Assembly: GCA_934119965.1 (NCBI GenBank)
Contig: CAKOTA010000006.1
Location: 3,933 to 67,932, forward strand
From: an uncultured Bacilli bacterium
GTDB taxonomy: Bacteria; Bacillota_I; Bacilli_A; RF39; UBA660
DNA: 64,000 bases
Direction: 5' to 3'
Part shown: positions 13,800 through 62,149 of the stretch, one piece after another
Layout of the letters: every line of letters starts with the position of its first letter
How positions within the stretch are numbered: the stretch's first letter is position 1
The notes under the pieces: model-generated
The model's input: the letters and a program-made list of their open reading frames with translations, nothing else
Told to the model about the DNA's origin: nothing
Database searches by the model: none
Position numbers and translations under genes: made by a program

Positions 13800-13822
13800 A
13801 TACTATAGTTAGTTAATAATTA

Positions 13823-13998: not shown

Positions 13999-14052
13999 CC
14001 AATATTAATTGATGCCAATAGTATTAATTACAATTAGAAGTTTGGTGGTAAT

Positions 14053-14757
14053 ATGACAAATAATATTAATATAAAAGATATTTCTCAAATTAATATAAAT
14101 AAAACTTTTTTTCACTATACTAATAAAAACAATTTAAATACTATTATAAAAAACGGTTTAGAGCCAAGAATAGGGAAAAATTCTTTATATGTAGAGAAAA
14201 GTAAAAAGGTATTTTTTTCTCAAGGAGGAACTGGAATATTAACTCTTATGGATGTTTGGCTAAGGTGGTTAACATCAAAATTTGGAATAAGTAATCAAAT
14301 TTATTGTTTGGGAACTTTTTATATGAGAATGCCATTATGTATTAAATGTATTCCTAATTATGTTGTTAGTAAATTTTTAAAAAGTAAAAATAAACGCATA
14401 AAAGTATTTAATCAACTTAAAAATATCTTAGATAATAGTGTTTTTTTGATTTTAGATTTAGAGGAAAATGTAGATTTTGACTACAATGATTTAGATGAAG
14501 TAAAGGAGACTTATTATGAGAGCTTTTTAAAGTTGTTATATCCTAGCGTAAGTGATTTAAAGGATAAAAAAATGGAGTATTGGAATATGCATACATACTC
14601 TAATAAGGTGATTGATAGTTCAAAAATTTCGTTATTAAAAGATAAAGATGAATATTCTGCTAGTAAGATATTAAAACAATTAATAGATGATAATATTTTA
14701 TATGTAAAACAGAATCTTGATTTTTTATATGAATATTATAACTATTTTTATAATTAA
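14053..14757 (+). CDS. Hypothetical protein (cassette B)
   Basis: 234-aa ORF. N-terminal FFHYTNKNNLNTIIKNGLEPRIG is reminiscent of the first motif of ART-fold / Tpt1 / DarT-like enzymes, but this is weak. Confidence 0.45.
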   Translation: MTNNINIKDISQININKTFFHYTNKNNLNTIIKNGLEPRIGKNSLYVEKSKKVFFSQGGTGILTLMDVWLRWLTSKFGISNQIYCLGTFYMRMPLCIKCIPNYVVSKFLKSKNKRIKVFNQLKNILDNSVFLILDLEENVDFDYNDLDEVKETYYESFLKLLYPSVSDLKDKKMEYWNMHTYSNKVIDSSKISLLKDKDEYSASKILKQLIDDNILYVKQNLDFLYEYYNYFYN

Positions 14758-14773
14758 CTATAATTTTTTGTTG

Positions 14774-14909
14774 GTTGTTCTACTTCTTTCCTTAGGGCAC
14801 CAGATTGATAGTTACTCGAATTTTTTCGAGATAACATAAAAACTACTCTCAAAATTAAATTGAAAGTAGTTTTATTTTGATAATTTAGAAACACACTTAC
14901 AAATTGACA
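14774..14909 (+). repeat. Junction element R2 (partial left arm + core + right arm, type beta)
   Basis: Reads GTTGTTCTACTTCTTTCCTTAGGGCACCAGATTGATAGTTACTCGAA, then hairpin AAAACTACT/AGTAGTTTT, then TAATTTAGAAACACACTTACAAATTGACA. Confidence 0.8.
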
Positions 14910-14945
14910 TAATCATTATGCATGTATAATAAATATTATATATTT

Positions 14946-16253: not shown

Positions 16254-16360
16254 TTTTGTACCTCCATTTTCTGTTTGATTATACCATATTTTGAGTATAT
16301 TTACTAGTTAAGTATTTTATAATTTATATTTTTATGCTATACTCGTATCAGTTAATTTTA

Positions 16361-16451
16361 TTACTAACTTTTTCTTTTGTTCGAAGAGTTGTTCTGCTTC
16401 TTTCCTTAGAGGGCATCAGATTGATTGATACTTGGACATGTCCTGAGTTTT
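16361..16451 (+). repeat. Junction element R3 (left arm + degenerate core + hairpin)
   Basis: Reads TTACTAACTTTTTCTTTTGTTCGAAGAGTTGTTCTGCTTCTTTCCTTAGAGGGCATCAGATTGATTGATACTTGGACATGTCC. The right arm is replaced. Confidence 0.7.
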
Positions 16452-16515
16452 AGTAATAGATTGCTAACAGAAATGTTAGTTTTTTTTACTTAAATCGAAA
16501 GGATGAGTAACGATT

Positions 16516-16790
16516 ATGTTTGAGATAGAAACTAAAAACTTAAAAATAAGTGATGAACTTAATAGAAAGTCGGTTTGCTTGTGTTAAATATGAATTTATA
16601 CTAGGTAATATTAAGTCAATTAAAAATACCAATGTTGCCTATGTAAAACCTCATATTTTAAAAGTTAAAGGAAATGATTACTTAATCTAGAAGAATGCAA
16701 AGAAGTCTTTATGAATGGCTATAATGACAAAATAAAACAAAAAGATTTAGAAATCTATCTAAAAAGGAAAGATAATTAACTGAATTTTAT
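16516..16790 (+). pseudogene. Decayed coding remnant (several short in-phase pieces broken by stops or frameshifts) (cassette D)
   Basis: Consecutive short protein-like reading segments in different frames (MFEIETKNLKISDELNRK..., ...YEFILGNIKSIKNTNVAYVKPHILKVKGNDY..., ...EECKEVFMNGYNDKIKQKDLEIYLKRKDN). Identity unknown. Confidence 0.3.
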
Positions 16791-16854
16791 GGTAAAATTG
16801 ATATAGGAAAACGGTTAGTCAGACTTGCCTGACTATTTAGAAAGGAGCAAAAAT

Positions 16855-17748
16855 ATGGCAAAAGACTTAGTAAAAACTGAAATAAATGTTATAGATAATA
16901 AAATAGGAATAATGAGAATTGGAGATGTTGATTATATATCACTTACTGATTTAGCAAAATATCAAAATCCAGAAGATCCATCAGGCGTAATTAGAAATTG
17001 GATGTCTAATAAAAATTCATTTGATTATTATGGTTTGTGGGAACAAATAAATAATGAAAATTTTAATTCCGTGGAATTTCACGTAATTAAAACTGAAGAA
17101 GCACCATACAATAGATTCACTATGACTCCAAAGAGATGGAAAGAGAAATTTAATGCAATAGGTATTGTTCCAAGCGCAGGAAAATATAGTGTTGGAACAT
17201 TTGCTCATCCTGATATAGCATTTGAATTTGCTAGTTGGTTAAGTCCAGAATTTAAACTTTATTTAATAAAAGAATTTGAAAGATTAAAGAAAAATGAAGC
17301 ATACCAACAAAAATTAGAATGGCATGCTAACAGGGTTTTATCAAAAGTAAATTATGTAGTTCATACAGATGCAGTTAAAAATTATATAGTTCCTATACTA
17401 ACAGAAGAACAAAAAAGATTTGTATATGCTGAAGAAGCTGATGTATTAAATGTAGCATTATTTGGAATGACTGCTAAAGAATGGAGACAAGAAAATCCAG
17501 AACTTGCTAAAAAAGGAAATATTAGAGACTATACAGATTTATTACATTTAGTAATATTAAATAATTTAGAAAATACAAATGCAGAGTTTATAAAATTAGG
17601 TATATCACAGAGTGAAAGATTAATTAGTTTAAATAATTCTGCTAGAAATCAAATGGAAATATTAAAAAATAATAATGGTATTAAAGAATTAGAATTATTA
17701 CAAGAAAGAATAAATGATAATAATAAAGTTTTGATAGAAAATAAATAG
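16855..17748 (+). CDS. KilA-N domain-containing protein (cassette D)
   Basis: The N-terminus has a KilA-N-like pattern (...VDYISLTDLAKYQ...VIRNWM...). The ATG at 16855 follows AAAGGAG; the track start at 16825 is probably too early. Confidence 0.55.
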   Translation: MAKDLVKTEINVIDNKIGIMRIGDVDYISLTDLAKYQNPEDPSGVIRNWMSNKNSFDYYGLWEQINNENFNSVEFHVIKTEEAPYNRFTMTPKRWKEKFNAIGIVPSAGKYSVGTFAHPDIAFEFASWLSPEFKLYLIKEFERLKKNEAYQQKLEWHANRVLSKVNYVVHTDAVKNYIVPILTEEQKRFVYAEEADVLNVALFGMTAKEWRQENPELAKKGNIRDYTDLLHLVILNNLENTNAEFIKLGISQSERLISLNNSARNQMEILKNNNGIKELELLQERINDNNKVLIENK

Positions 17749-17776
17749 TATTATTAATTTTATGGTGTATAATTAG

Positions 17777-18388
17777 TTTAGTGGTGCTGGGAAAACAAGT
17801 TTAGTAAATTTAATTCCGCGATTTTATGAACTGACTAGTGGAAATATTTTAATTAATGGTATTGATTACAATGAGTATTCTTTGAGTGATTTAAGAAGTA
17901 GAATAGGTTATGTTTTTCAAGATCCAATAATATTTAATATGAGTATATATGATAATCTAAAATTTGGAAATGATGATGTAACAAATGAACAAATAGAAAA
18001 AGTTTGTACTGAAATAGGACTAGATGAAAAAATTAAATCATTACCTAATGGTTATAATACATTAATTGATATATATTCAGATTTATTGTCATATGGTGAA
18101 AAACAATTGTTAAATTTTTCAAGAGAAATTTTAAGAAAAACTGATGTTATAATTCTTGATGAAGTGACATCAAATTTAGATTTGGAATTTGAAAAAAAAG
18201 TAATGATAGCTAATAAAAGAGTTTTAGAAAATAAGATTTCATTTGTTATTGCACATAGATTAAACACAATAAAGGATGCAGACTTAATTTTTTATTTACA
18301 AGATGGAATTATTAAAGAATGTGGAACTCATAAAGATTTAGTAAAATTAAAAGGCGAGTATTTTAAATTATATTTTAACAAAAAATAA
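17777..18388 (+). pseudogene. 5'-truncated ABC exporter ATPase domain (starts inside the Walker A motif)
   Basis: The frame opens at 17777 with FSGAGKTSLVNLIPRFY. It continues through the Q-loop, signature-like LSYGEKQ, Walker B ILDE and the H-loop AHR. There is no TMD, no N-terminal half and no start codon. Confidence 0.8.
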
Positions 18389-48804: not shown

Positions 48805-49869
48805 ATGTTTGGATTGGAAATGGATCAATTAGCTAAGATTAAAGTTATTGGTGTTGGTGGCGGTGGAAATAATGCCGTTAATAGAATGATTGAATCAGGA
48901 GTTAAAGGAGTAGAATTTATAGTAGCAAATACAGATTTACAAGTATTAAATAATTCTAAAGCTCCAGTCAAAATACAAATAGGTGCTGAATTAACAAGTG
49001 GATTAGGTGCTGGAGGAAAACCTGAAATTGGTAAAGAATCTGCATTAGAATCAAGAAATGAAATTGAATCTGCTTTACAAGGTGCTGATATGGTATTCAT
49101 AACTTGTGGTATGGGTGGAGGAACTGGTACAGGTGCTGCTCCAGTTGTTGCTGATATAGCTCAAGGAATGGGTGCTTTAACAGTAGGTATTGTTACTAAA
49201 CCATTCTCATTCGAAGGTAAAAAAAGAATGGATCAAGCTTTAGCTGGATTAGATGAATTGAAAAAACATGTCGATACTTTAATTGTTATTCCAAATGATA
49301 AATTAAGAGAAATTATTGATAAATCAACACCATTATTAGAATCATTCAAAGAAGTAGATAATGTTTTAAGAAGAGGTGTTCAATCAATATCTGACTTAAT
49401 AGCTGTATCAGGATTAATTAACTTGGATTTTGCTGATGTTAAAGCTGTAATGGAAAAAAGAGGAAATGCCCTTATTGGAATTGGTATGGGTGTTGGTGAA
49501 AATAGAGCTACTGAAGCTGCAAGAGAAGCTGTTTCTAGTCCATTATTAGAAACAAGTATTAGTGGAGCTACTGATGCAATTATTAATGTAACGGGTGGTG
49601 CTAATTTAACTTTATTCGAAGTTGAAGAAGCCGCTGAAGTAATTAGAGCAAGTGCTAATACTGATATTAATACAATATTTGGAGCTGTAATTAATGAAAA
49701 TTTAAATGATGAAATTATTGTTACTGTTATAGCAACTGGATTTGAAGAGAAAAAAGATGAAATGCAACATGCTTATGTAGCTGAAGAAAAGAAAGAAGTA
49801 TTCAGTTCAGATGATGACGATGATGATGATTCAGATTTACCTCCAATTTTAAGAAAAAGAGTATTCTAA
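48805..49869 (+). CDS. ftsZ: Cell division protein FtsZ
   Basis: [13 protein letters not shown] and [10 protein letters not shown] tubulin signature. Poly-Asp linker and a conserved C-terminal peptide DLPPILRKR. Confidence 0.97.
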
Positions 49870-49947
49870 GAGATTTTATAAAAATCTCTTTTAATTTGAC
49901 AAAATTTTATTTTTTTATATAATATATTTCATTGAAAGGGGAATTAT

Positions 49948-50646
49948 ATGAAAGGTTTTCAAAAAATATATCCATTTACTACTGAATCAATAAGTGGTTA
50001 TATTACAAAAATGGATATAAAAGATAAAATGGTTTTAACACTTGGTTCTTCATGTGATCAAGCATTAAATAGTTTATTATTAGGAGCAAAGGATGTTACT
50101 ATTTTTGATATTAATGAACAGGTTAAGAATTTTTACGAATTGAAAAGGAAATTAATATTGTCCACATCTAGAGAAGATTTGAGAGAAAAACTGATTAATG
50201 AATTAAATAGCAAAGATTTTTTGTATTTTAATGAAATATTTTTAAATGATAGTTTAATAAAAATGAATTTATATTTACAAAATGATGAAAATTATAATAA
50301 ATTAAGAAATATCTTAAAAGAAAAGAAAATCAATTTTATAGTTGGTGATATATTTAATGTGACTGAGTATTCTAAGTTGAATCAAAAATACGACCGAGTT
50401 ATTTTATCCAATGTTTTAGATTATCTTCCTACTGATTTAGACAAAAGTAAAAAAGTTTTTGATATATATAAAGGACTTTCACAACACTTAAATGAAGAAT
50501 CATTAATTCAATTATATTATTTATATGGCACACTTTTTTCTAATGATTTTATTAAAGTTGTGAATAGATTTTTAGATTATAATATTTTATTTGAAAAAAT
50601 CCCTTGTGACGAAGAAGATTCGGCAATATTTGTAAAAAAGAAATAA
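49948..50646 (+). CDS. Rossmann-fold SAM-dependent methyltransferase-like protein (DUF3419-like?)
   Basis: VLTLGSSCDQALNSLLLGAKDVTIFDIN resembles SAM-binding motif I plus an acidic loop. Weak. Confidence 0.35.
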   Translation: MKGFQKIYPFTTESISGYITKMDIKDKMVLTLGSSCDQALNSLLLGAKDVTIFDINEQVKNFYELKRKLILSTSREDLREKLINELNSKDFLYFNEIFLNDSLIKMNLYLQNDENYNKLRNILKEKKINFIVGDIFNVTEYSKLNQKYDRVILSNVLDYLPTDLDKSKKVFDIYKGLSQHLNEESLIQLYYLYGTLFSNDFIKVVNRFLDYNILFEKIPCDEEDSAIFVKKK

Positions 50647-50718
50647 ATATGTTAAAGTATATTGACATTTTTAAATTCTAGGAGTATTATCAATTTAATA
50701 TTTTATTTGGAGGTACTT

Positions 50719-50814
50719 ATGGTAAATGAAATTATAAAAAAATGTTTATTAGAATCATTTACAAATGAAATCACTTGTATTGATTTTCTATGTGCTTCTT
50801 TAATAAAACGATAG
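50719..50814 (+). CDS. Small Cys-containing ORF (31 aa) upstream of rel
   Basis: Not in the track. GGAGGT RBS 5 nt upstream. Sequence MVNEIIKKCLLESFTNEITCIDFLCASLIKR. Its stop codon is embedded in a terminator-like hairpin. Confidence 0.35.
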   Translation: MVNEIIKKCLLESFTNEITCIDFLCASLIKR

Positions 50815-50847
50815 GCTGTAAATATTTTGCGCGCTTATCGTTTTTTT
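50806..50847 (+). terminator. Terminator/attenuator-like hairpin in the rel leader
   Basis: AAACGATA (50806-13) pairs with TATCGTTT (50836-43), followed by a T run to 50847. Confidence 0.45.
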
Positions 50848-50867
50848 GTTATATACGGAGGTGTTTT

Positions 50868-52313
50868 ATGAATCAAGTTGAAGAACTAAAAGTTAAATTA
50901 TTTGAAAATATTAAAGAATATAATGAGGAAGAGACTAATAATGTTTTAAAAGCATTTGAATTTGCTAATGAATTACATAAAGGCGTTTACCGTCAAAGTG
51001 GTGACCCTTATATAACACATCCTTTAGAAGTAGCAATTATTTTATCAGAAATGCATGCTGATAGAGATACTATTTGTGCGGGATTACTTCATGATACAAT
51101 TGAAGATACAAATATTACTAAAGAAGATATAGCTGAAGCTTTTAATAAAGATGTTGCGAAATTAGTTGACGGAGTTACCAAAATAAGTAAACTTAATTTT
51201 TCAAATAAACAAGAACAAAATGTTGCAAACACAAGAAAAATAATTACTAGTATCACTGATGATGTAAGAATTGTTATAATTAAATTGGCAGATAGGTTAC
51301 ATAATATGCGAACATTACAATTTAAAAGTGAATTTAAACAAAAAGAAAATTCAATGGAAACAATGGATATATTTGTGCCACTTGCTTATTATATTGGAGC
51401 TTATAGAATTAAAAGTGAATTAGAGGATTTATCACTACAATATTTATATCCTGATAAATACAAAAAATTAGAAGAAGTAAAAATAAAAATTGAAAATGAA
51501 AGTTCTAATTGTTTAAAAGAAATGTATGAAAATATAAATTGTATTTTAAATAATAGAGATATACCACATGAAATTAAAATAAGAACTAAAAATATTTATG
51601 GTATTTATAAAAGATTAGAACAAGGACATAAAATATCTGATATTCATGATCTTTTAGCGCTTAAAGTAATGGTTGATGATATAGCAAATTGTTATCAAAC
51701 ATTAGGTTTAATTCATTCTCAATATCATCCTATTAATGACAAATTTAAAGATTACATTTATAATCCAAAAACTAATATGTATAGATCACTTCATACTACA
51801 GTGTTTGGTGAAGATAATAGACTTGTTCAAACACAAATTAGAACATTTAATATGGATAAAGTTGCTTCATTTGGACTTACTGCATATTGGGATATTGAAA
51901 AAGGAAATGCTAGAAATGTAATGCAAGATGATTTAAAAAATAAATATCAATTCTTTAAATCATTAATTGAAATAAATCGTGTTTTTGGAGATAATCAAGA
52001 ATTTGTAAGGCAAGTAAAAAATGAACTTTTTACTGATAGAATATATGTATATACAACTAAGGGAGAAATAGTTGAACTACCAATTGGTTCTACAGCAATT
52101 GATTTTGCTTATAAAATTCATTCTGATTTAGGTAATACAATGGTTTCAGCAATTGTAAATGATAAGGTTGTTGAACCAGACTATGTATTGCATAATAAGG
52201 ATAGGGTAAGAATTATAACTGATATTATGTCATATGGACCAAGAGAAGAGTGGATAAATAAAGTTCAAACTACTAAAGCAAAAAGAAAGATAAAGGAGTT
52301 TAATAGAAAATAA
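50868..52313 (+). CDS. rel: Bifunctional (p)ppGpp synthetase/hydrolase Rel, short form ending just after the TGS domain
   Basis: HD domain (HDTIEDT), synthetase domain (YRSLHTTV) and TGS domain. The ATG at 50868 follows GGAGGTG; the track start at 50790 lies inside the leader terminator. Confidence 0.85.
   Translation: MNQVEELKVKLFENIKEYNEEETNNVLKAFEFANELHKGVYRQSGDPYITHPLEVAIILSEMHADRDTICAGLLHDTIEDTNITKEDIAEAFNKDVAKLVDGVTKISKLNFSNKQEQNVANTRKIITSITDDVRIVIIKLADRLHNMRTLQFKSEFKQKENSMETMDIFVPLAYYIGAYRIKSELEDLSLQYLYPDKYKKLEEVKIKIENESSNCLKEMYENINCILNNRDIPHEIKIRTKNIYGIYKRLEQGHKISDIHDLLALKVMVDDIANCYQTLGLIHSQYHPINDKFKDYIYNPKTNMYRSLHTTVFGEDNRLVQTQIRTFNMDKVASFGLTAYWDIEKGNARNVMQDDLKNKYQFFKSLIEINRVFGDNQEFVRQVKNELFTDRIYVYTTKGEIVELPIGSTAIDFAYKIHSDLGNTMVSAIVNDKVVEPDYVLHNKDRVRIITDIMSYGPREEWINKVQTTKAKRKIKEFNRK
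51927..52310 (+). repeat. Direct repeat copy 1 (3' end of intact rel)
   Basis: 384 bp recurring at 60099-60482 (constant offset 8172), with only a handful of substitutions by eye. Confidence 0.9.
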
Positions 52314-52765
52314 TGAATAAAGTGATTTATATAGATTTCGATGGCGTACTTGTTGATACTCCAAAATTTATAAATGAAGAGCTAAAAATAAATGGAAATT
52401 CAGAAGAAACTTGCAAAAATTTTCATTGGGATTATTTTTTAAAAAATTGTAATGAAATAGAAAATAATTTAACAGTTTTAAAAAAAATATCGCAAAAAAA
52501 TAAAGTCGTAATTTTAACACATGTTTATTCAGACAATGAAAAATTAGCTAAAGAGAAGTTTATTTTTGAAAAACTAAATAATATAAAGATTATTGCAGTT
52601 CCTTATTATATAGATAAAAATATAATTGTTAATCCAAAAGATAATATTTTAATTGATGATTATAGTAATAATATTGATAAATGGATAAATTCAGGTGGTA
52701 TAGGAATACAATTTAAAAACGAAAAAAGAATAGATAAATTATTAATTGATTACATAAGAATTTAA
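52313..52765 (+). CDS. HAD-superfamily phosphatase (5'(3')-deoxyribonucleotidase-like)
   Basis: YIDFDGVLVD (DxDG motif I) and IDD late motif. The ATG overlaps the rel stop (TAATG). Confidence 0.55.
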   Translation: MNKVIYIDFDGVLVDTPKFINEELKINGNSEETCKNFHWDYFLKNCNEIENNLTVLKKISQKNKVVILTHVYSDNEKLAKEKFIFEKLNNIKIIAVPYYIDKNIIVNPKDNILIDDYSNNIDKWINSGGIGIQFKNEKRIDKLLIDYIRI

Positions 52766-52778
52766 GGTGGTGAAAATA

Positions 52779-53657
52779 ATGATATCTTATTATAGTTGTT
52801 TTAATAAAAAAATTTTAATTAATTTATATAAAAAGTCGGATGATATGTTGGATTTTTGGCTAAAAAGATTTTGCCCTAGTATAATTAAAATTCAAGATTC
52901 AGCACAATTAAAAATTGATTTAGAAATTATTGTCGTAAAATCCGAAAAAACAAATTATAGTATAAAAAATAATAAAATATTTTTATTTGGAAATATAAGA
53001 GATAATATAAGCTATATTGCAAAATTTGTAACACAATGTTTTCAAAAATTATTAATAGAAGAAAATATTTTAATAATTCCAGCATCATGTGTCTCAAAAA
53101 AAAATAAAGCGTTACTTGTAATAGGTGATTTTTGGCAAGGAAAAACTTCTTCAGCATTAAATATCTCATCTAAATATAAGTGTAATTTAATATCAGACAA
53201 TTATGTTGCTATTAAAGATGGTTATATTATAGGAGCCACAAGTTTTATATCAGTAAGGAAAGAAGATATTAAAGATAAAACCAATCCCATATTTTTTAGC
53301 ATTAATGATAGATATTTTTATAATAATAAATATTTCTATGATAGTAATTTAAAGATAATTGGATTTATGTTACCATATATTAATAAAGGAGATAATAATA
53401 TTCATTACATATCAAAGGAAGAATCTTATTGGTATTTATATCAAAAATTTTCAAGATTATTATGTGGCGAAACGATTTTATTTGATGGAAAATTGCCATC
53501 ACCAATGTTTTTAAATAAGAGTAATTCAAAAACAATTTTAAAAATTGTAGATGAATTACTAATTAGCAATAGCATAAAATATGTTTCTGCTCCAATGGAT
53601 ATTATAACAAACGAAGGAAACAAAATATTATGTGATGGAGATGATAATAATGAATAA
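52779..53657 (+). CDS. HprK C-terminal-domain-like protein with degenerate P-loop
   Basis: IPASCVSKKNKALLVIGDFWQGKTSSALNISSKYKCNLISDNYVAI parallels the HprK pattern H(A/G)S.V...G.G.L..G.SG.GKS..AL.L......L.(A/S)DD. Confidence 0.45.
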   Translation: MISYYSCFNKKILINLYKKSDDMLDFWLKRFCPSIIKIQDSAQLKIDLEIIVVKSEKTNYSIKNNKIFLFGNIRDNISYIAKFVTQCFQKLLIEENILIIPASCVSKKNKALLVIGDFWQGKTSSALNISSKYKCNLISDNYVAIKDGYIIGATSFISVRKEDIKDKTNPIFFSINDRYFYNNKYFYDSNLKIIGFMLPYINKGDNNIHYISKEESYWYLYQKFSRLLCGETILFDGKLPSPMFLNKSNSKTILKIVDELLISNSIKYVSAPMDIITNEGNKILCDGDDNNE

Positions 53658-54672
53658 GGATTTTAATTTTATTGTAAAATTAACAACCGGTTGTCCTGGA
53701 AATTGTAAGTGTTGCCGCGATAGACAAGAAAACTTTAAATTAAAAAATGAAAAAAATAGTATTTTTGATATAAATATTTTTGAAAAAATATGTAAGAATA
53801 TAAAAAAATTAAACGGATCGTATGTATGCATTTCTGGCGGAGAGCCAACTATGGTAAGAAATATTGATGATTATATAAAAATAGCAAAAAAATACGAATT
53901 AGCGACAAGAATAAATACAAATGGATGGAATGTCACAAAAGACAATTTAGAATGTTGGTTAAAAAATGGATTAGATCAAATTGTTTTATCAATATATGGG
54001 TTAGATGAAAAGAGTATTATTGAGACCAGAGGTAATAGATTTATTTTTGATAAAAGTATGAGGGCTATTGAAGTTATAAAAGAACTAAGAAAAAAATATA
54101 AATTTATATTTATTATTCAAACTATAATAATGAAAGAAAATTATAAGCAAATGCCAGAATTACTTAATTACTCAATTGATAGTAATGTAAATTTATTTTG
54201 GCCTTCATATTTGGAAGATGCAATTAATTTACCAGAAATAAGGTTGAGTACTGAAGAAATAAGTGATTTCAAAAATAATATAATTCCAAATATGAAAAAA
54301 ATAATTGATGAAAAAGTTATGGATAATAAGATAAAAGAGAATATTATGAAATCATTAGATAGTTATTATAATGATGGTACAAAGTTATATCAATACCATA
54401 AAGAAAATGAGAATTGTCATTGGAGCGGTAAACATTTCACATTTTATCCTAATGGGACAATAGATCCATGTCCTGGTCATGAATATTTTAAGAGTAAATA
54501 TCAATTTAAAATAAATTATAATGAGATTGATGAGTTTATGAAATTAGAAAATTTAACTAAATGTAAAAATGTATGTTTTGATTATTGTAAGTATTGTCCA
54601 CAAGGTGTTCATCACGAAATATCATTTATGCCTGTTTCATTTAATGAACATGATAGTAAAGAGGAAATTTAA
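53650..54672 (+). CDS. Radical SAM enzyme with C-terminal SPASM/twitch-like Cys cluster
   Basis: CPGNCKCC contains CxxxCxxC near the N-terminus. GGEP motif. C-terminal CHWSG...DPCPGHE...CKNVCFDYCKYCPQG. It overlaps the upstream gene by 8 nt. Confidence 0.7.
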   Translation: MNKDFNFIVKLTTGCPGNCKCCRDRQENFKLKNEKNSIFDINIFEKICKNIKKLNGSYVCISGGEPTMVRNIDDYIKIAKKYELATRINTNGWNVTKDNLECWLKNGLDQIVLSIYGLDEKSIIETRGNRFIFDKSMRAIEVIKELRKKYKFIFIIQTIIMKENYKQMPELLNYSIDSNVNLFWPSYLEDAINLPEIRLSTEEISDFKNNIIPNMKKIIDEKVMDNKIKENIMKSLDSYYNDGTKLYQYHKENENCHWSGKHFTFYPNGTIDPCPGHEYFKSKYQFKINYNEIDEFMKLENLTKCKNVCFDYCKYCPQGVHHEISFMPVSFNEHDSKEEI

Positions 54673-56007
54673 ATGATATATACTACCGAAGAAAATAGGT
54701 ATTTATCATACAATACACCTTTAATAGAATATATTAGGTCAAAACATTTATATACAAACGAAAATCTGATGTATACAAAAAAATATTCTGATGGTACATT
54801 TTCAATAACAAAGCCTACAGAAATATTTACAAATTGTGAGTTTATCAATGGATATCCACATTTTCAAATACCACTTTCAAAATGTATAGAAGAAATTGAG
54901 TTTTTTATAACAGGTGAAAAAATGTATGATAATAATTTTTATATTAGATATGGTGATACTCATCCACATAAATGTATCCCTAAATTGGCACAAGTAAGAA
55001 ATTTAGTTATAGAAAATTCTTTATCAAATATGATAGGCAAAAATGTAAAAAGTTTTTACGGCTTTGGAGACATAAGTTTGAAATCATTAAAGGATTTTAT
55101 TGAAAAATATCATATAAATATGACACCCAATGAAATGTTTATAATGCTTGTTAATAATAATATATCTAATGATATTTTGAAAAAATTAGAGGAATATGAT
55201 TTATCAGCCTTAAAACAAATTTTTATTTTTTTAAGACAGTTAAGATTAGTTCCGAAAGAATTTTTAGTTGAATCGAAACTATACTCAAATCAAAATTTAT
55301 ATAGATCATTAAAGAGTAATCCAAATTTTACAGAAGAATTAAAAAAAAATGGAGAATTGAAATATTCACTACAAGAGTTAATATTTATTAATTCAATTTT
55401 AGATAATAATGATGATGTATTATTTAATATTATAGGTGCAAATCAAAATTCACATGTATTAAAAGTAGAAGAATTGTTAAAAGGAAATTATGATTTGAGA
55501 GGTAGATTTTTAACATATGAAATATGTAGAAATGCAGATGAACGTGATATTAATTTATGGTCTGAAAAGTTAAATAAGTTTATTGAAAAAAATAATTTAG
55601 AAATAAGTGGTGATAATCTTGATTACCAAGATTTATTAAAAATATTAATGATAATTAATAGTAATGATGTAATTATTGATTATGACAAATTAGATAAGTA
55701 TAAAAACAATATTAGAAAATTTACTAATATTGTTACAAGTATAGATGGTATAAATAATAAAAAAAATATTAATTCTGGTAATGATTTAATTTATAAAATG
55801 GCATTAGTTTGTTATAATTTAAATAGATCTATTGAAATGGGAAATCAAAGTAATTTTTACAGATACTTAATTGTTGTAGTTGATGAATATGAAAATAATA
55901 AAGATAAATATATTAATATTCAAGGACTGTATAAAGAATTTTTGATTAAGTGTTTAGATAGACTGGGGTATAAAAAGAAAGATAAAATAAAGGAGTTGAA
56001 AAAATGA
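54673..56007 (+). CDS. Hypothetical 444-aa protein
   Basis: Long ORF abutting the rSAM stop. No motif recognised. Confidence 0.5.
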   Translation: MIYTTEENRYLSYNTPLIEYIRSKHLYTNENLMYTKKYSDGTFSITKPTEIFTNCEFINGYPHFQIPLSKCIEEIEFFITGEKMYDNNFYIRYGDTHPHKCIPKLAQVRNLVIENSLSNMIGKNVKSFYGFGDISLKSLKDFIEKYHINMTPNEMFIMLVNNNISNDILKKLEEYDLSALKQIFIFLRQLRLVPKEFLVESKLYSNQNLYRSLKSNPNFTEELKKNGELKYSLQELIFINSILDNNDDVLFNIIGANQNSHVLKVEELLKGNYDLRGRFLTYEICRNADERDINLWSEKLNKFIEKNNLEISGDNLDYQDLLKILMIINSNDVIIDYDKLDKYKNNIRKFTNIVTSIDGINNKKNINSGNDLIYKMALVCYNLNRSIEMGNQSNFYRYLIVVVDEYENNKDKYINIQGLYKEFLIKCLDRLGYKKKDKIKELKK

Positions 56008-56978
56008 TTTATCCTAAAAAAGTAAATAAAAATGATATAATAGAAATAATTTCACCATCAAATGGTGTGAAAAGTAAAAAAATACAAAAAATCGAAAAAG
56101 CAGTAGAAAAATTAAATAATTATGGATATAAGGTAGTTGAAGATAGATATGTAAGAAATACTGAAAATGGCGTTAGTTCATCTGCATTTAATCGATCAGT
56201 TGAACTAAACAACGCAATTAAGAATAAAGAAGTAAGAGCCTTAATTGCATGTTCAGGTGGAGATTATTTAGTTCAAATTATGGGTTTAATAAGTTTTGAT
56301 CAATTTAAAAAAAATATAAAATGGATACAAGGTCAATCCGATATTACACCTTTGTTATTTTATATAACAACTAAATTAGATGTTGCAACAATTTATAGTT
56401 TTAATGCCAAATCTTTTGGTGATGATAATTTACCAGAATCAATGATAAAAAATAACATGGAATTTTTAAGTGGAAAAATGCCGAAACAAATTGAATATGG
56501 ATATAAAATAGATGATGATAAAATAGAACAACCATGGGAGTGTATAACAGAGGATAGAGAATTTAAAGGAAGAATTATAGGAGGATGCTTAGATTCATTA
56601 AAAGATATAATAGGGACAAAATATGATTGTGTAAAAAATTTTATAAATAAATATAATGAAGATGGAATAATTTGGTATTTTGATGTGGCGGAAATGACAA
56701 ATGAAGATATATTAAGAACAATGTGGCAATTTAAAAATGCCGGGTGGTTTATAGGGTGTAAAGGTATTTTATTTGGAAGAATAGAAAATGAAATTAATTA
56801 TACAGGCATAACACTAAAAGATGCAGTTAATTATAATCTTTTTGATTTAAATATTCCAATTTTTATAAATACAGATATAGGACACACGAATCCAGTATAT
56901 ACATTAATTAATGGTTCAATTGTAAGAGTTACTAAAAATAAAGATAATAAGCATATTATGGAGACAATTTTTGAATGA
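56004..56978 (+). CDS. S66-family serine peptidase (LD-carboxypeptidase LdcA / MccF-like)
   Basis: GQSDITPL (nucleophile elbow GxSD), C-terminal DIGHTNP (catalytic His) and SGGDY. Overlaps both neighbouring genes by 4 nt. Confidence 0.7.
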   Translation: MIYPKKVNKNDIIEIISPSNGVKSKKIQKIEKAVEKLNNYGYKVVEDRYVRNTENGVSSSAFNRSVELNNAIKNKEVRALIACSGGDYLVQIMGLISFDQFKKNIKWIQGQSDITPLLFYITTKLDVATIYSFNAKSFGDDNLPESMIKNNMEFLSGKMPKQIEYGYKIDDDKIEQPWECITEDREFKGRIIGGCLDSLKDIIGTKYDCVKNFINKYNEDGIIWYFDVAEMTNEDILRTMWQFKNAGWFIGCKGILFGRIENEINYTGITLKDAVNYNLFDLNIPIFINTDIGHTNPVYTLINGSIVRVTKNKDNKHIMETIFE

Positions 56979-58033
56979 AAATATTAATTGGAATTTGTGG
57001 AATTGGAAATGGACATTTAAGCAGACAGACAAATGTAATAAATTTATTAATGAATAAAAATCATAAAATAGTTATAGTAACTACGAAGAATAATATTAAT
57101 TATTTTAAAAATAAATTTCCAGAGTTTAAAGTATTAGAAATTAGTATTCCATGGATAGCATGCAATTCAACAGGAATTGATTTTGAAACATCTTTAAAAA
57201 AATATCAAGAGGGGAAAATAGATCAATTTTTTGAATTTTTAAAATTTTCTATGAATGTAGAAAATGCATTTTCTGGAGTTCCGGATTTGGTAATTACAGA
57301 TTATGAACCGAATGTTGCTCAATATTCTTATGCAGTTGATATACCTTTAATTTGTATGGAACAGCAATCAAAATTTTTATATTTAAATGAAGTAAAAATA
57401 AGTAATTTCTCAATTTTAGAAGAAAAAAAAAGAATTAATTATTTTTTTCCAAAATACTCGTATAAAGTAATTTCATCTTTTTTTCCAATAACTATAAAAG
57501 AAAAAAATGTTAAAGTGGTTACACCGATTATATCTCCATTAAATGAGATAAAACATAAAAAAAATCATATATTAGTATACTTTTCTCCATATGAAAATTC
57601 AGATAAGTATAAAAAAATAGTAAGAGCATTAGAAGATATACCAAATCGTAATGTAATTGTTTATACAAAGGAAGACTTCGATATTGATTCGAATAACATT
57701 ACATTTAAATCTTATTCTAATGAATTTAAAAACGATCTTGAAAATGCTTACTGTATAATATCTACTGCCGGGCATCAGTTGCTAAGCGAATCTATCTCAA
57801 TTGAAGTGCCAGCATACTTAATACCATTAAGTACATATGAACAAAATTATAATGCTAAAATGATTGAAAAATATGATTTGGGAAAAATATCACATAATAT
57901 AAATGCCGAAGAAATAAATCAATTTATTAAAGAAATACCTTACTATAAGAAAAGAATTATAAAGTTCAAAAATAAATATTATAAAAATAATTGGGAAAAG
58001 AGTTTGTTAGAAATTATTGATACTTTTATGTAA
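56975..58033 (+). CDS. GT-B glycosyltransferase (MurG/GT28-like; MJ1255-type N-terminus)
   Basis: MKILIGICGIGNGHLSRQ N-terminus and a C-terminal nucleotide-sugar-binding-like TAGHQLLSES. Confidence 0.55.
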   Translation: MKILIGICGIGNGHLSRQTNVINLLMNKNHKIVIVTTKNNINYFKNKFPEFKVLEISIPWIACNSTGIDFETSLKKYQEGKIDQFFEFLKFSMNVENAFSGVPDLVITDYEPNVAQYSYAVDIPLICMEQQSKFLYLNEVKISNFSILEEKKRINYFFPKYSYKVISSFFPITIKEKNVKVVTPIISPLNEIKHKKNHILVYFSPYENSDKYKKIVRALEDIPNRNVIVYTKEDFDIDSNNITFKSYSNEFKNDLENAYCIISTAGHQLLSESISIEVPAYLIPLSTYEQNYNAKMIEKYDLGKISHNINAEEINQFIKEIPYYKKRIIKFKNKYYKNNWEKSLLEIIDTFM

Positions 58034-58041
58034 AAAAATGC

Positions 58042-58069
58042 TTGACTTTTAGTAAGGGCTCATTATAAT
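58042..58069 (+). promoter_or_regulatory. Strong sigma-A-type promoter for argS
   Basis: TTGACT (58042-47), a 16-nt spacer, then TATAAT (58064-69). No T-box-sized leader. Confidence 0.6.
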
Positions 58070-58109
58070 ATATGTAAATTAAATTTTGTTAGTGAAAGAG
58101 GGAATTTTT

Positions 58110-59795
58110 ATGTTGAATTTAAAAAAATATATCAAAGAAGAAATAGAAAAGGTAGGTATTCAATTAGATAGCGTTGATGTTGTAAGACCACCTAAAGAGG
58201 AAATGGGTGATTTTACTATACCATGTTTTACTATAAATATGGATGGTATAAATAATCCACATGAAAAAGCAAAAGCTATTTTAGAAAAATTAAATATGAA
58301 TGAAGATATTATTTTAGATACAAAAGTTATAGGACCATACTTAAATTTTACTATTAATAGAGATTTTTTGGCAAAAGAAACATTAGAGACTATTAGTTCA
58401 GAAGGAAATAATTATGGTTCAAGCAGAATTGGAAATGGAAAGGAACTTTTAATTGAGCATACATCAATAAATCCAAATGCTTCACCTCATATTGGTAGAT
58501 CAAGAAACAGTATTATAGGAGATTTTTTAGTTCGACTATATAAATTTGAAGGTTATAATGTTGAAGCAAATTATTTTATAAATGATATTGGAAAACAAAT
58601 TTCAATGTTATTGGTGGGGGTAGAAAAATTAGGTAATATTGACACTATAGCATTTAGTGATATGCTAAAGTTATATATAGAAATAAATGATATAAGTAAA
58701 ACAGATAAAGAAGTAGAAAAAAAGATCTTCTATTATTTACACGAATTAGAAAATGGAAATGAAGAAGTTAGAGATAAATTTAAGAAAATTACAGATATAT
58801 GTGTTGAAGGACAACAAGAAATATTTAAGAAAATGGATATTAGATGGGATAGATTTACTCATGAATCTGATTTTGTTTTTGAAAATAAAACCACAAAAAT
58901 ATTAGAACGATTAAAAGAAAGAAAAAAATTACATGAAGATGAGAATGGCAGATTATATGTTGACTTGAGTGAATATGATATACCAACAAAATCACCAGTA
59001 TTAGTTCTTACTAGAGAAGACAAAACTTCATTATATCCATTGAGAGATATTGCTTATACTATTTCAAAACTAGAAAGAAATAAAGAAAATAATGTTATTG
59101 TCTTGGGAGAAGATCAAGAAGTCTATATGCAACAAATTGCTGCAACACTAGATATTCTAGGATATACTGCTCCAAAACTTGTCTCATATGATTTTGTTCT
59201 ATTAAATGGTGATAAAATGGCTACTAGAGAAGGAAAAGTTGTCCTACTTGATGAATTTATTGAAAAAGCAAAAGAAAAATTAGCTATGACATTTAAAGAA
59301 AAAGGAACAAATTTATCAAATGATGAAATTGTAGATTTAGCTGCGTCTTGTATTAAATATAACATGTTAAATGTTAATAGAAAAAGAACAGTTAATTTTA
59401 ATTTAGAATCAGCAACAGATTTTCAAGGTAATTCGGCTATTTATCTATTATATAATTATGCAAGAATAAATTCTATTTTAGAAAAGGTAAATTATTGTGG
59501 ATCTGATGAAGATATTTATAAATTTAAAGAAGAATTAGAATATTCATTAATAAATAGTCTATATAAATTTCCAGAAGTTGTAGATAATTCATATAATACT
59601 CAAGAATCAGTAATTATTACCAATTATTTATATGATGTAGCTCAAAAATTTTCAAGATATTATAAAAATATACCTGTATTAAATGAAGAAGACAAATTAG
59701 TAAGACAATCAAGACTCGCATTATTAAATTCAACTAAAACAGTTTTATCAAACGGAATGAAAATTCTTGGAATAAATCCAGTTAAGAAATTATAA
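58110..59795 (+). CDS. argS: Arginine--tRNA ligase
   Basis: N-terminal Arg-tRNA-synthetase add-on domain, SINPNASPHIGRSRN (HIGH region), MATREG (KMSK-like) and a DALR-type C-terminus. The ATG at 58110 follows AGAGGGA. Confidence 0.85.
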   Translation: MLNLKKYIKEEIEKVGIQLDSVDVVRPPKEEMGDFTIPCFTINMDGINNPHEKAKAILEKLNMNEDIILDTKVIGPYLNFTINRDFLAKETLETISSEGNNYGSSRIGNGKELLIEHTSINPNASPHIGRSRNSIIGDFLVRLYKFEGYNVEANYFINDIGKQISMLLVGVEKLGNIDTIAFSDMLKLYIEINDISKTDKEVEKKIFYYLHELENGNEEVRDKFKKITDICVEGQQEIFKKMDIRWDRFTHESDFVFENKTTKILERLKERKKLHEDENGRLYVDLSEYDIPTKSPVLVLTREDKTSLYPLRDIAYTISKLERNKENNVIVLGEDQEVYMQQIAATLDILGYTAPKLVSYDFVLLNGDKMATREGKVVLLDEFIEKAKEKLAMTFKEKGTNLSNDEIVDLAASCIKYNMLNVNRKRTVNFNLESATDFQGNSAIYLLYNYARINSILEKVNYCGSDEDIYKFKEELEYSLINSLYKFPEVVDNSYNTQESVIITNYLYDVAQKFSRYYKNIPVLNEEDKLVRQSRLALLNSTKTVLSNGMKILGINPVKKL

Positions 59796-59799
59796 TAAA

Positions 59800-60098
59800 A
59801 TGAAAATATGTGTTGTTGGCACGGGATATGTTGGCTTTTCTCTACCTGTTCGTCTTAGTGAAAAAAATGATATTGTCGTTTATGATATAGATAAAGAAAA
59901 ATTAATATGATAAATAATAATATAAGTCCATTGAAAATGATGGTATTTATTAATATTTAAATAATAAGAAGCTGAAACTAAAATCCACCCGTAATTATCA
60001 GGTGGATTTTGAAAATTCAAAGTACATTATAATATGTACTCCAATTGATTTTGGCTATAAAACTAATTTGTTTGATACTTCTTCTATTGAAAATATAG
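59800..60098 (+). pseudogene. ugd: Decayed N-terminal part of UDP-glucose 6-dehydrogenase
   Basis: MKICVVGTGYVGFSLPVRLSEKNDIVVYDIDKEKLI then a stop. Further Ugd-like pieces follow in other frames (...IIICTPIDFGYKTNLFDTSSIENI), cut off by repeat copy 2. Confidence 0.7.
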
Positions 60099-60494
60099 GA
60101 TGATTTAAAAAATAAATATCAATTCTTTAAATCATTAATTGAAATAAATCGTGTTTTTGGAGATAATCAAGAATTTGTAAGGCAAGTAAAAAATGAACTT
60201 TTTGCTGATAGAATATATGTATATACAACTAAGGGAGAAATAGTTGAGTTACCAATTGGTTCTACAGCAATTGATTTTGCTTATAAAATTCATTCCGATT
60301 TAGGTAATACAATGGTTTCAGCAATTGTAAATAACAAGACTGTTGAACCAGACTATGTATTGCATAATAAGGATAGGGTAAGAATTATAACAGATATTAT
60401 GTCATATGGACCAAGAGAAGAATGGATAAATAAAGTTCAAACTACTAAAGCAAAAAGAAAGATAAAGGAGTTTAATAGAAAAATCATTGAATAG
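60099..60494 (+). pseudogene. Orphan 3' fragment of rel (direct repeat copy 2: 60099-60482)
   Basis: Encodes DDLKNKYQFF...TGS domain...EFNRKIIE with no 5' part. It differs from copy 1 by a few substitutions and has a 3-residue longer tail. Confidence 0.85.
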
Positions 60495-60526
60495 TGTAAA
60501 ATCAATAAAAAGGAGGTTTTCTAATT

Positions 60527-62149
60527 ATGGAAAAAAGAGATATTTTTATAGGTGGTGCATGGCCTTATGCCAATTATTATTTACATGTTGGTCATTTAGC
60601 TGCCTTATTACCTGGAGATATACTTGCAAAATATTTTAGGGGTAAAGGTGATAATGTAATTTATGTGTCTGGTTCTGATTGCCACGGGACACCAATAACT
60701 GAAAGAGCAAAAAAAGAGAATGTTTCTCCAAAAGAAATTGCAACACATTATCACAATGAATTTGTAAAGACATTTAATAATCTTGGTTTTGAATATGATG
60801 AGTATTCAAGCACTATGTCTGAACATCATAAGGAATATGTAGAAGAACAATTTAAAAGGATGTTGGATAATGGTTATATTTATGAAAAGGAAGAACTTCA
60901 AGATTATTGTGAAGAATGCAATTCGTTTTTATCGGATAGAGAAATTGTAGGAGTATGCCCACACTGTGGTGGTAAAAGTACTGGAGACCAATGTGATATA
61001 TGTGGAGATTCTTTAGATAGCAGTGAGGTACTAGATAAACATTGCAAAACTTGTGGGTCTAGTACTATTATGAAAGAAAACAAACATCTTTATTTTAAAT
61101 TAACTGCTTTTGAAAAAACATTACAAGATTTAATTAATCGAAATAAAGAAAAATGGAGAAAAAATGCATTGGGCGAAGCACAAAAATATATTGATATGGG
61201 TTTAGTTGATAGGGCAGCTACTCGTCAATTAGACTGGGGAGTAACTGTACCTGTTGAAGGATATGATGATAAAAGAATTTATGTATGGATAGAGGCGGTA
61301 TTAGGATATTTATCTGTGGGTAAAGAAGTAGCAGAAAAAAGGGGAATAGATTTTGATAAATTTATGTCAAAAGATAATCAAAATTTGAAAACATACTATG
61401 TTCATGGAAAAGATAATATACCATTTCATACAACTATATATCCGGCATTAATTTCTGCTATTAAAAATAATTATAATTTACCAGATTATATTGTTTCATC
61501 AGCATATGTTAATTTGAATAATGAAAAAATGAGTAAATCAAAAGGAAATTTGATTACTGCAAATGAATTACTTGAAATGTTTGACAGAGATACATTGAGA
61601 TTTTATTTTTCATTTAAAGGACCAGAAACTAATGATATGAATTGTTCTTTATCTGATATTATTCAAACACATAATAAGTTTTTAGTTGGAATGTTAGGAA
61701 ATTTTGTAAATAGAAATCTTTCATTTATTAATAAAAAATTTGATGGTAGTATTCAGGAAGCACATATAGATGAGAAGATAAAGGAAGCAACTGAAAAAAG
61801 TTTTAAATTAATTGGTGATTTTTTTGAACGAGGCGAATTAAGAAATGCAGTAACACAAATTTTTGAATATGTAGCAATTGCCAATAAATATTATGATACT
61901 TGTCAACCATGGGTCCAAGTAAAGGAAGATATTAATGCTTTTAATGATACAACATATACTTGTACTTATATGATTGCAAATATGGCAAATATGATAGCTC
62001 CTATATTACCTCATGCTTCACAAAAAATTAAACAAATGTTGGATTTACCTGATTATAAATGGGAGGAAACCAAAATAATAGGTAATTATCAAATTAGAAA
62101 TTTACAAGTTTTATATGATAGAATAGACGAGACAAATTTTAAAATATAA
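60527..62149 (+). CDS. metG: Methionine--tRNA ligase
   Basis: YLHVGH (HIGH), KMSKSKGN and two zinc knuckles (CEECN...CPHCGG, CDICG...CKTCG). Confidence 0.9.
   Translation: MEKRDIFIGGAWPYANYYLHVGHLAALLPGDILAKYFRGKGDNVIYVSGSDCHGTPITERAKKENVSPKEIATHYHNEFVKTFNNLGFEYDEYSSTMSEHHKEYVEEQFKRMLDNGYIYEKEELQDYCEECNSFLSDREIVGVCPHCGGKSTGDQCDICGDSLDSSEVLDKHCKTCGSSTIMKENKHLYFKLTAFEKTLQDLINRNKEKWRKNALGEAQKYIDMGLVDRAATRQLDWGVTVPVEGYDDKRIYVWIEAVLGYLSVGKEVAEKRGIDFDKFMSKDNQNLKTYYVHGKDNIPFHTTIYPALISAIKNNYNLPDYIVSSAYVNLNNEKMSKSKGNLITANELLEMFDRDTLRFYFSFKGPETNDMNCSLSDIIQTHNKFLVGMLGNFVNRNLSFINKKFDGSIQEAHIDEKIKEATEKSFKLIGDFFERGELRNAVTQIFEYVAIANKYYDTCQPWVQVKEDINAFNDTTYTCTYMIANMANMIAPILPHASQKIKQMLDLPDYKWEETKIIGNYQIRNLQVLYDRIDETNFKI

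Follow-up and report, generated by a model that had tools for sequence, protein, structure and literature searches.

Class I aminoacyl-tRNA synthetase (aaRS) catalytic folds have been recruited to metabolite biosynthesis in cyclodipeptide synthases (CDPSs) and in MshC. CDPSs, which derive from TyrRS/TrpRS-type enzymes and carry no anticodon-binding domains, have lost the HIGH and KMSKS motifs and use aminoacyl-tRNA, whereas MshC retains both motifs and acts with a glycosyltransferase (GT) and a phosphatase in mycothiol synthesis. In the albomycin pathway, the aaRS-like protein AbmF adds serine from the seryl-tRNA synthetase (SerRS) AbmK, and the subsequent action of a radical S-adenosylmethionine (rSAM) enzyme yields an inhibitor of SerRS (PMC9092360). 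More generally, aaRS genes within biosynthetic clusters serve immunity or supply (bioRxiv 10.64898/2025.12.02.691738). Here, we analyzed 64,000 nucleotides of contig CAKOTA010000006.1 (assembly GCA_934119965.1, positions 3,933 to 67,932, forward strand) from an uncultured Bacilli bacterium, referred to below as “the window,” and a six-gene operon within it that a first-pass annotation, made from the sequence alone, had picked out as a candidate uncharacterized biosynthetic or modification system. The operon encodes a small HAD phosphatase, a kinase-like protein, an rSAM enzyme, a 444-amino-acid (aa) protein, an S66 peptidase, and a GT-B glycosyltransferase. Structure prediction and profile comparison identify the 444-aa protein as a diverged paralog of arginyl-tRNA synthetase (ArgRS), stripped of its motifs and representing a previously undescribed family. 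The gene set around it recurs in more than 25 independent contigs, commonly beside a genuine ArgRS gene.

The likeness to AbmF/AbmK is one of gene roles: an aaRS-like protein lies beside a genuine aaRS and is accompanied by rSAM tailoring, and one divergent locus (L018) pairs a paralog lacking HIGH with a HIGH-bearing MetRS-like protein and also has a carbamoyltransferase. Unlike in albomycin biosynthesis, the pair is of ArgRS rather than SerRS type, siderophore genes are absent, the hosts seem to be uncultured gut bacteria of low GC content (Firmicutes), and the cassette adds the GT-B enzyme, a kinase with the fold shared by phosphoenolpyruvate carboxykinase (PEPCK) and HprK, and, in some lineages, a UDP-glucose 6-dehydrogenase (Ugd) and the S66 peptidase. 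In contrast to the CDPSs, the paralog is ArgRS derived and has kept both of its tRNA-binding domains. A literature search returned no description of the cassette, the tiarin and albomycin precedents being its useful returns.

The 444-aa protein evades domain libraries. No Pfam or NCBIfam model matched it at an E value of ≤0.01, PADLOC and PHROGs were also uninformative, none of the ArgRS models PF00750, PF05746, and TIGR00456 or the ArgS-related NrtL model NF045898 detected it, and a search of PDB sequences with its family profile found no aaRS. A word-seeded search returned 125 relatives, none with a domain and with “hypothetical protein” as the sole source name, and an exhaustive profile search of 1.84 billion representatives found just 54 members, so that the family is very small. 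Modeling with AlphaFold2, which the first-pass annotation had proposed, revealed an ArgRS fold at high confidence (33-sequence alignment; pLDDT, 92; pTM, 0.90): the top 18 Foldseek matches of the model in PDB were ArgRS structures (E values of 1.6e-11 to 2.4e-8; TMq of 0.52 to 0.70), followed by CysRS, MetRS, and MshC, the last at rank 35. Profile-profile comparison with hhalign, in which 24 family members with identities as low as 20% were set against 11 ArgRS sequences, gave a probability of 92.6% and an E value of 4.5e-7 over 387 columns, the alignment beginning where the N-terminal domain ends and running collinearly to the C terminus of the DALR domain (paralog residues 53 to 444, ArgRS residues 69 to 559). 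An earlier hhalign run with shallow alignments was insignificant (E value of 0.22), and significance came only with the broader profiles.

The model comprises the three ArgRS domains, namely, the N-terminal Add1, Rossmann catalytic, and DALR anticodon-binding domains, in a protein ~120 residues shorter than canonical ArgRS (TIGR00456/PF00750+PF05746+PF03485). Where the HIGH region of the aligned ArgRS reads “PHIGRSRN,” the paralog has “PKLAQVRN” (K-L-A-Q for HIGH), with no conserved His at those positions family-wide, and the KMSK-type loop (“KMATREGKVV,” with “KMATR” as its form in the ArgRS of this lineage) is absent, appearing in the profile alignment as a 12-residue deletion. Shared with ArgRS are a Tyr/acid pair and a pocket Gln: “YPLRD” of ArgRS pairs with “YSLQE” of the paralog, in which Y231 and E235 are invariant and occupy what we take to be the position of the Tyr/Asp pair that binds guanidinium in ArgRS structures, and the Q of “GEDQ” pairs with invariant Q258. 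A nearly invariant Arg (R92) stands where ArgRS has the Glu that binds the substrate alpha-amino group. Invariant residues gather at the former active site (G94, D95, H97, P103, R109, Y231, E235, Q258, and H261). Because of this pattern of motif loss and retention and the active-site invariants, the protein is best described as a conserved-pocket ArgRS derivative lacking the ATP motifs, which is enzyme-like and not the substrate protein that the first-pass annotation had considered.

The operon and its flanks, all on the forward strand, are laid out as follows.

50868-52313 (+): relA/spoT-type (p)ppGpp synthetase-hydrolase, upstream flank (TIGR00691, 524 bits); its stop overlaps the first cassette gene
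51920-52303 (+): left copy of a 384-nt direct repeat, the relA 3' end (repeat families D1 and D10, ~96% identical)
52313-52765 (+): small HAD phosphatase, 5'(3')-deoxyribonucleotidase-like, accessory (DFDGVL motif; phrog_2643, E value of 6e-15)
52767-53657 (+): P-loop phosphotransferase of PEPCK/HprK fold, core (GTG at 52767 or ATG at 52779, the latter the likely start)
53650-54672 (+): radical SAM enzyme with one conserved auxiliary four-Cys site, core (longest open reading frame [ORF] from GTG at 53632)
54673-56007 (+): 444-aa ArgRS paralog without HIGH or KMSK-type loop, core, new family (AlphaFold2, Foldseek, and hhalign)
56004-56978 (+): S66 serine peptidase, MccF-like, accessory (both S66 Pfam domains; GQSD and GHT)
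56975-58033 (+): GT-B glycosyltransferase, probably of MJ1255/VC2487 type, core (PF13528 over the full length)
58042-58069 (+): sigma-70-like promoter ahead of argS (TTGACT, 16 nt, TATAAT)
58110-59795 (+): genuine arginyl-tRNA synthetase gene, argS (TIGR00456, 444 bits against a cutoff of 262)
59801-60091 (+): UDP-glucose 6-dehydrogenase (ugd) remnant, read directly (N-terminal MKICVVGTGYVG... plus a later fragment)
60092-60475 (+): right copy of the direct repeat, an orphan relA 3' fragment and the right boundary of the block (spacing of 8172 nt)

The ORF listing and direct reading of the junctions agree with the first-pass annotation on the six codirectional, tightly coupled genes at 52313-58033 and their overlaps. 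TAATG combines the relA stop with the HAD start, the gap to the kinase-like gene is 1 nt from its GTG or 13 nt from its ATG, the kinase-like and rSAM genes overlap by 8 nt when the latter starts at the ATG at 53650, the rSAM and 444-aa genes abut (TAAATG), and ATGA forms 4-nt overlaps at both the 444-aa/S66 and S66/GT junctions. Inside the operon there is thus no room for a further small ORF, as had been claimed. The six proteins, read directly, have no obvious membrane segments or signal peptides, and the GC content of the window is ~24% throughout.

To place the operon among its relatives, 44 loci were collected and scored by tblastn; their GC content ranges from 0.23 to 0.41. The first-pass annotation would have counted its proposal as refuted if homologs of the six genes never co-occurred elsewhere. 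They co-occur widely, more than chance would give, in the following arrangements.

Window type (L007, L009, L021, L028-L032, L034, L036, whose contig ends after the GT gene, and L043): relA, HAD, kinase, rSAM, paralog, S66, GT, ArgRS, Ugd
Window type in another context (L010): same block, relA not upstream
First ParB-like variant (L001-3, L012, L037-39): paralog, ParB/Srx-like (DGQHR), GT, (Ugd), ArgRS
Second ParB-like variant (L004/5/11): ParB-like, GT, paralog, S66, beside a large serine recombinase
Minimal core (L024, L025): kinase, rSAM, paralog, GT, ArgRS
Short contig (L040): rSAM fragment, paralog, GT, ArgRS
Convergent argS (L027): kinase, rSAM, paralog, GT, then ArgRS on the opposite strand
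No aaRS partner (L015-17): HAD2, unknown, kinase, rSAM, GT, paralog, Ugd, GNAT
ugd right after GT (L035): rSAM, paralog, S66, GT, Ugd
Large rSAM-rich cluster (L018-20): paralog and MetRS-like protein (HIGH kept), dTMP-kinase-like, NUDIX, carbamoyltransferase, several rSAM enzymes
Decayed copy (L013): pseudogenized cassette between insertion sequence (IS) genes

The conserved core is the PEPCK/HprK-fold kinase, the rSAM enzyme with one auxiliary cluster, the ArgRS paralog, and the GT-B enzyme, which remain together down to 25% paralog identity. Paralog and GT occur together in every architecture but the L018 type, and kinase and rSAM join them in most; the two ParB-like variants have no rSAM gene. 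In 6 of ~10 architectures, among them the convergent one and some whose loci have 32 to 41% GC, an ArgRS gene is the direct neighbor. The ugd gene is linked in four; it is intact in L009, L010, and L021 (386 aa in relatives), whereas the window has just a remnant. These ties to Ugd and to a genuine ArgRS, the most informative context of the operon, are missing from the first-pass annotation, which ended the unit at 58033; the recurrent block also takes in argS (58110-59795) and the ugd remnant (59801-60091). No relatives were found among IMG/VR viral contigs, GenBank phages, or PLSDB plasmids.

In the ParB-like variants, a ~235-aa protein ending in “YIRDGQHR” (L001, 11307-12020; L004, 8233-8931), an ending like the ParB/Srx- or DndB-like DGQHR motif, replaces HAD, kinase, and rSAM. 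The most divergent paralog occurs at L018 (2140-17305; also L019 and L020), together with at least four rSAM enzymes (one B12 binding), an ADP-ribosylglycohydrolase, and an ASCH protein.

Profile hidden Markov models (HMMs), another check that had been proposed, gave clear matches for Radical_SAM, the S66 domains, and Glyco_trans_1_3 and a match below the cutoff for NT5C. In structure, the kinase-like protein proved closest to a different family from the one first named. Its AlphaFold2 model (pLDDT, 89) matched ATP-dependent PEPCK best in Foldseek, over both domains (E value of 2.6e-11; TMq of ~0.6), and it shows the PEPCK-like P-loop fold of a Walker A motif followed by an L-I/V-S/A-D-D/N strand. 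The best PDB sequence match of the family profile was the HprK P-loop segment, the motif aligning to 1JB1 at an E value of 0.75. HMMs for HprK stayed below their cutoffs (PF07475, E value of 0.16 in one of eight members), and matches to HprK-related kinase B were weak (TIGR04355, E values of 0.004 and 1e-4; 16.4 bits against 200). The label “HprK-like” is therefore correct at the superfamily level only: the shared fold stands, membership in HprK itself is unsupported by HMM scores, and the best structures are small-molecule PEP carboxykinases. Nor is the P-loop degenerate, as had been stated, since GDFWQGKT(S) fits GxxxxGK[ST], with G120, D121, Q124, G125, K126, and T127 invariant family-wide, F and W kept in ≥90% of sequences, and a variable last S.

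The rSAM enzyme has the CX3CX2C motif (PF04055, E value of 5e-15) and belongs to none of the known housekeeping maturase families, its best NCBIfam score being 68 bits against a cutoff of 380; matches to ScmE/ScmF were generic (27 to 45 bits against 400). Its invariant Cys residues are C15, C19, and C22 of the radical SAM motif, C48, C60, and, toward the C terminus, C256, C274, C313, and C316, whereas C305 and C309 are not invariant. The SPASM-like C-terminal cluster of the first-pass annotation did not hold up, as Pfam SPASM (PF13186) failed to match the window enzyme and reached an E value of only 0.05 in two orthologs. The four invariant C-terminal Cys residues instead indicate, at the level of sequence, a single auxiliary cluster site, with a Cx17C...Cx2C spacing that we take to resemble that of the single-cluster “twitch” domain. 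The rSAM core begins at residue 15, so that there is no N-terminal recognition domain; no RiPP recognition element (RRE) or PqqD-type domain was found in it (RiPP, ribosomally synthesized and posttranslationally modified peptide), nor any PqqD-like gene in the loci examined. Its best PDB sequence matches, all remote, were the streptide maturase SuiB (E value of 2.6e-8), BlsE, and PqqE. The sole PADLOC match was of this enzyme to viperin models; the match is generic (44 bits), and a defense role drawn from it was rejected.

Of the accessory and remaining core proteins, the S66 enzyme matched PF02016 in its N-terminal part (E value of 2e-26) and PF17676 in its C-terminal part (2e-22). Its GQSD and GHT motifs, noted in the first-pass annotation in similar form, line up with the catalytic Ser and His residues in the MccF-like structures 5USD, 4E5S, and 4H1H (E value of 2.5e-19), and we infer a catalytic Glu. 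All 20 PDB sequence matches at E values of ≤0.001 were MccF-type entries, whereas the LdcA equivalog NF008424 scored 47 bits against a cutoff of 378 (E value of 1e-12), so that by sequence the enzyme appears closer to MccF-like structures than to LdcA. Like the microcin C immunity protein MccF, it has the S66 fold, the nucleophile Ser and the His in place, and a genomic tie to aaRS chemistry; unlike it, identity is ~25%, several cassette variants lack the gene, and microcin C-type MccA-E genes are absent. The GT matched PF13528 (Glyco_trans_1_3) over its full length (E value of 2e-34; 119.5 bits against 25), with 117 bits against a cutoff of 195.9 for TIGR00661 and a weak match to the MurG/GT28 C-terminal domain, the murG equivalog scoring 28.8 bits against 250. 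The HAD protein, carried by window-type loci alone (L015 has a different HAD), matched Pfam NT5C weakly (20 bits against 24.8).

Taken together, we favor a cytoplasmic small-molecule pathway that follows AbmF/AbmK logic and makes an arginyl sugar or nucleoside conjugate, at a probability of roughly 0.4. The analysis shows the gene content, the folds, which motifs are lost or kept, and the conserved linkage; from these we infer each chemical step, a specificity for arginine, and the kind of product, as follows. The GT-B enzyme would glycosylate an acceptor, probably with UDP-glucuronate from the associated Ugd, and the kinase and rSAM enzyme would remodel the sugar or nucleoside scaffold. The paralog, with its arginine pocket and both tRNA-binding domains kept, would move an arginyl (or similar basic) group onto the scaffold, the adjacent genuine ArgRS providing this group as Arg-AMP or Arg-tRNA in a two-protein scheme like that of AbmF and AbmK. 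The donor could be Arg-tRNA because arginine activation by ArgRS requires tRNA (PMC2034488). Where present, the HAD phosphatase would take off a transient phosphate and the MccF-like S66 hydrolase would cut an aminoacyl amide in self-protection or maturation. An arginyl glyco- or nucleoside conjugate would result, and it may be an antimetabolite directed at ArgRS. What points toward sugar or nucleoside chemistry is the linked Ugd and GT, the BlsE match, the nucleotidase-like HAD, the MccF-like hydrolase, and the nucleotide-enzyme context of L018. Of the metabolites entertained in the first-pass annotation, a nucleotide- or sugar-type compound is thus the better option, and the RiPP flavor is unsupported.

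In a RiPP-like cassette, the rSAM enzyme and HprK-like kinase would modify a peptide encoded elsewhere, the GT would glycosylate it, and the S66 enzyme would trim it. HprK homologs reportedly phosphorylate lasso peptides, SuiB is the rSAM enzyme's best PDB sequence match, and, as in the TIGRFAM HprK-related kinase/rSAM-SPASM cassettes (TIGR04355 and SynChlorMet), a P-loop protein with “GDxxxGK[ST] ... L[IV]SDN” sits beside an rSAM enzyme and weakly matches HprK-related kinase B. Unlike in those cassettes, scores here are 16 to 21 bits against a cutoff of 200, PqqD and a precursor are absent, and neither an ArgRS paralog nor a GT is known to be part of them. No small ORF is common to the loci, those at 50719-50814 (31 aa), in L004 (41 aa), and in L025 (63 aa) each being lineage specific. 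With no conserved small ORF, no recognition domain, one auxiliary site and no SPASM match, and a kinase-like protein resembling PEPCK over both domains, the evidence leads away from a RiPP, which would also leave the invariant ArgRS paralog unexplained; we regard this origin as highly improbable. Envelope decoration is doubtful, if less so. Here, GT and Ugd would build a glucuronate glycolipid, a teichoic-acid-type structure, or a peptidoglycan-precursor structure, the paralog would aminoacylate or amidate it, and the S66 enzyme would be an LD-carboxypeptidase. The ugd linkage, the weak MurG/GT28 match, the LD-carboxypeptidases within the S66 family (NF008424), and the different cassette that L022 and L023 hold at the same place upstream of argS are all compatible with this. 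It fits poorly with proteins that lack obvious membrane segments or signal peptides, with the absence of a flippase, polymerase, and lipid-carrier enzyme, with murG and LdcA equivalog scores far under their cutoffs (29 against 250 and 47 against 378), and with an S66 enzyme whose best structural relatives by sequence are MccF-like.

Somewhat less doubtful, though still unlikely, is a tRNAArg-directed modification, in which the paralog would dock tRNAArg (or a tRNA-shaped protein) while the GT, rSAM enzyme, and kinase install a glycosyl-type modification. There are precedents for aaRS paralogs and similar partners that modify tRNA or EF-P, among them GluQRS, EpmA with the rSAM enzyme EpmB, and the GT-B enzyme EarP. 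The paralog's retention of the N-terminal and DALR domains to its very C terminus while the ATP motifs are gone, the persistent argS linkage, the coupling to relA in an aaRS-rich neighborhood, and the lack of an exporter would all suit such a role. However, no role on tRNA is obvious for the S66 enzyme, the nucleotidase-like HAD, or Ugd; the patchy, mobile, and decay-prone distribution (L013 is pseudogenized and the L006 cassette is disrupted by an IS) would be unusual for a translation-critical modification; and the invariant pocket keeps arginine side-chain ligands that a pure tRNA-docking module would not need. Several observations also weigh against an arginyl conjugate pathway. HAD, S66, and Ugd are accessory and not universal, three architectures have no adjacent aaRS, L035 has ugd and not argS after the GT gene, and the conserved core includes no exporter, aminotransferase, or regulator. 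With HIGH and KMSK gone, the paralog could be a noncatalytic binder. Linked and unlinked ArgRS proteins show no obvious active-site differences, and ArgRS identity covaries smoothly with paralog identity. Because the cassette-free relative L044 has argS right after relA, argS here looks most simply like a resident housekeeping gene, and this arrangement, together with the smooth covariation, means that adjacency could reflect birth of the paralog by argS duplication or use of argS as a recombination arm. Finally, the host type and translational coupling to relA fit a physiological role equally well as an antibiotic.

Whichever applies, a family unrecognized by any domain library is now placed as a motif-stripped ArgRS paralog anchoring a conserved, mobile cassette of uncultured gut Firmicutes. 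If the arginyl conjugate pathway that we favor is right, the human gut microbiome would yield a new arginyl glyco- or nucleoside metabolite, perhaps an antimetabolite that targets ArgRS and comes with its own MccF-type detoxifier; if tRNAArg is the target, there would be a new tRNAArg-directed modification system. Either offers a clean, testable case of a class I synthetase repurposed after HIGH and KMSK loss. A bolder proposal, to which we give a low probability, is that the paralog is a new enzyme class that has abandoned amino-acid activation, using Arg-tRNAArg as arginyl donor for a nonribosomal acceptor or docking tRNAArg for a glycosyl-type modification by the GT, rSAM enzyme, and kinase; in the former case, it would be the ArgRS-lineage counterpart of the CDPSs. 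For genome mining, the kinase-like protein, rSAM enzyme, paralog, GT, and ArgRS provide a five-gene signature.

The ArgRS gene of the block is the one copy in the window. Its promoter agrees with the consensus at 11 of 12 positions, a consensus match only. The stretch 58033-58110 holds this promoter and a short argS leader. Rfam gave no T-box or other RNA family over 49500-61000, and the lack of a T-box is unusual for a Firmicute aaRS gene. The ArgRS proteins of the window and of L021-L027 read “PH[IM]GRxRN,” with Arg for the second His of HIGH, whether cassette linked or not. A role for the ArgRS as a resistant second copy brought by the island was downgraded in view of the native relA-argS arrangement of L044 and of active sites that do not differ between linked and unlinked enzymes.

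The proposal of an inserted island was partly right. In L044, whose ArgRS is 72% identical, relA is followed after 27 nt by argS and then by tyrS and metG, and the cassette is missing; in the window, cassette, argS, and truncated ugd lie between two copies of the relA 3' end, which form a 384-nt direct repeat of 96% identity, and homology to the relatives L009 and L010 ends at the right repeat (60091-60097). Such a pattern would be left by a circular fragment integrating through a single crossover (Campbell-type integration), which we suggest as its origin. The L044 region (4886-18090) is rich in aaRS genes, with Asp/AsnRS-type, ArgRS, TyrRS, MetRS, and TrpRS-type genes and relA, and also holds a separate S66 peptidase gene between NUDIX genes and an AAA_33 kinase gene. 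L022 (2062-8920) and L023 (2071-8949) lack the paralog cassette and have, directly upstream of argS, a five-gene cassette for an aminotransferase, a PHP phosphoesterase, an SDR protein, an AsnB-like amidotransferase, and a 790-aa AMP-binding enzyme. Since L044 has no cassette and L022 and L023 have a different one, the cassette occupies a variable slot between the housekeeping genes relA and argS, and the place next to argS appears to be a variable biosynthetic locus.

In L010, where the block has another context, perfect 240-nt direct repeats (4196-4435 and 13987-14226) correspond to the 3' end of an unrelated 281-aa gene, and no integrase lies inside the HAD-to-Ugd block. In L034, two full-length relA genes (5205-6644 and 16856-18292; 76% nucleotide identity) flank the block, which evidently can be carried with a spare relA; just upstream (382-4859) are genes for a large serine recombinase, an HTH protein, a sigma-70-like protein, and an IS30-like transposase. 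Together with the repeat in the window, these contexts show that the block is exchanged among relatives along with its flanks.

For relA of the window, the start at 50868 is likely, as GGAGG stands ahead of it (the longest ORF runs from 50790). The encoded protein is short, ~480 aa from this start, ending just past the TGS domain, and is of the same length in relatives. The 31-aa ORF upstream of relA (50719-50814) had been offered as a candidate precursor peptide gene; it was rejected as such, being not conserved across loci and overlapping a strong terminator-like hairpin. The hairpin (50801-50851; -19 kcal/mol; z, -3.7) is followed by a U-run, and the ORF has a good ribosome-binding site; the two may form a leader-peptide attenuator.

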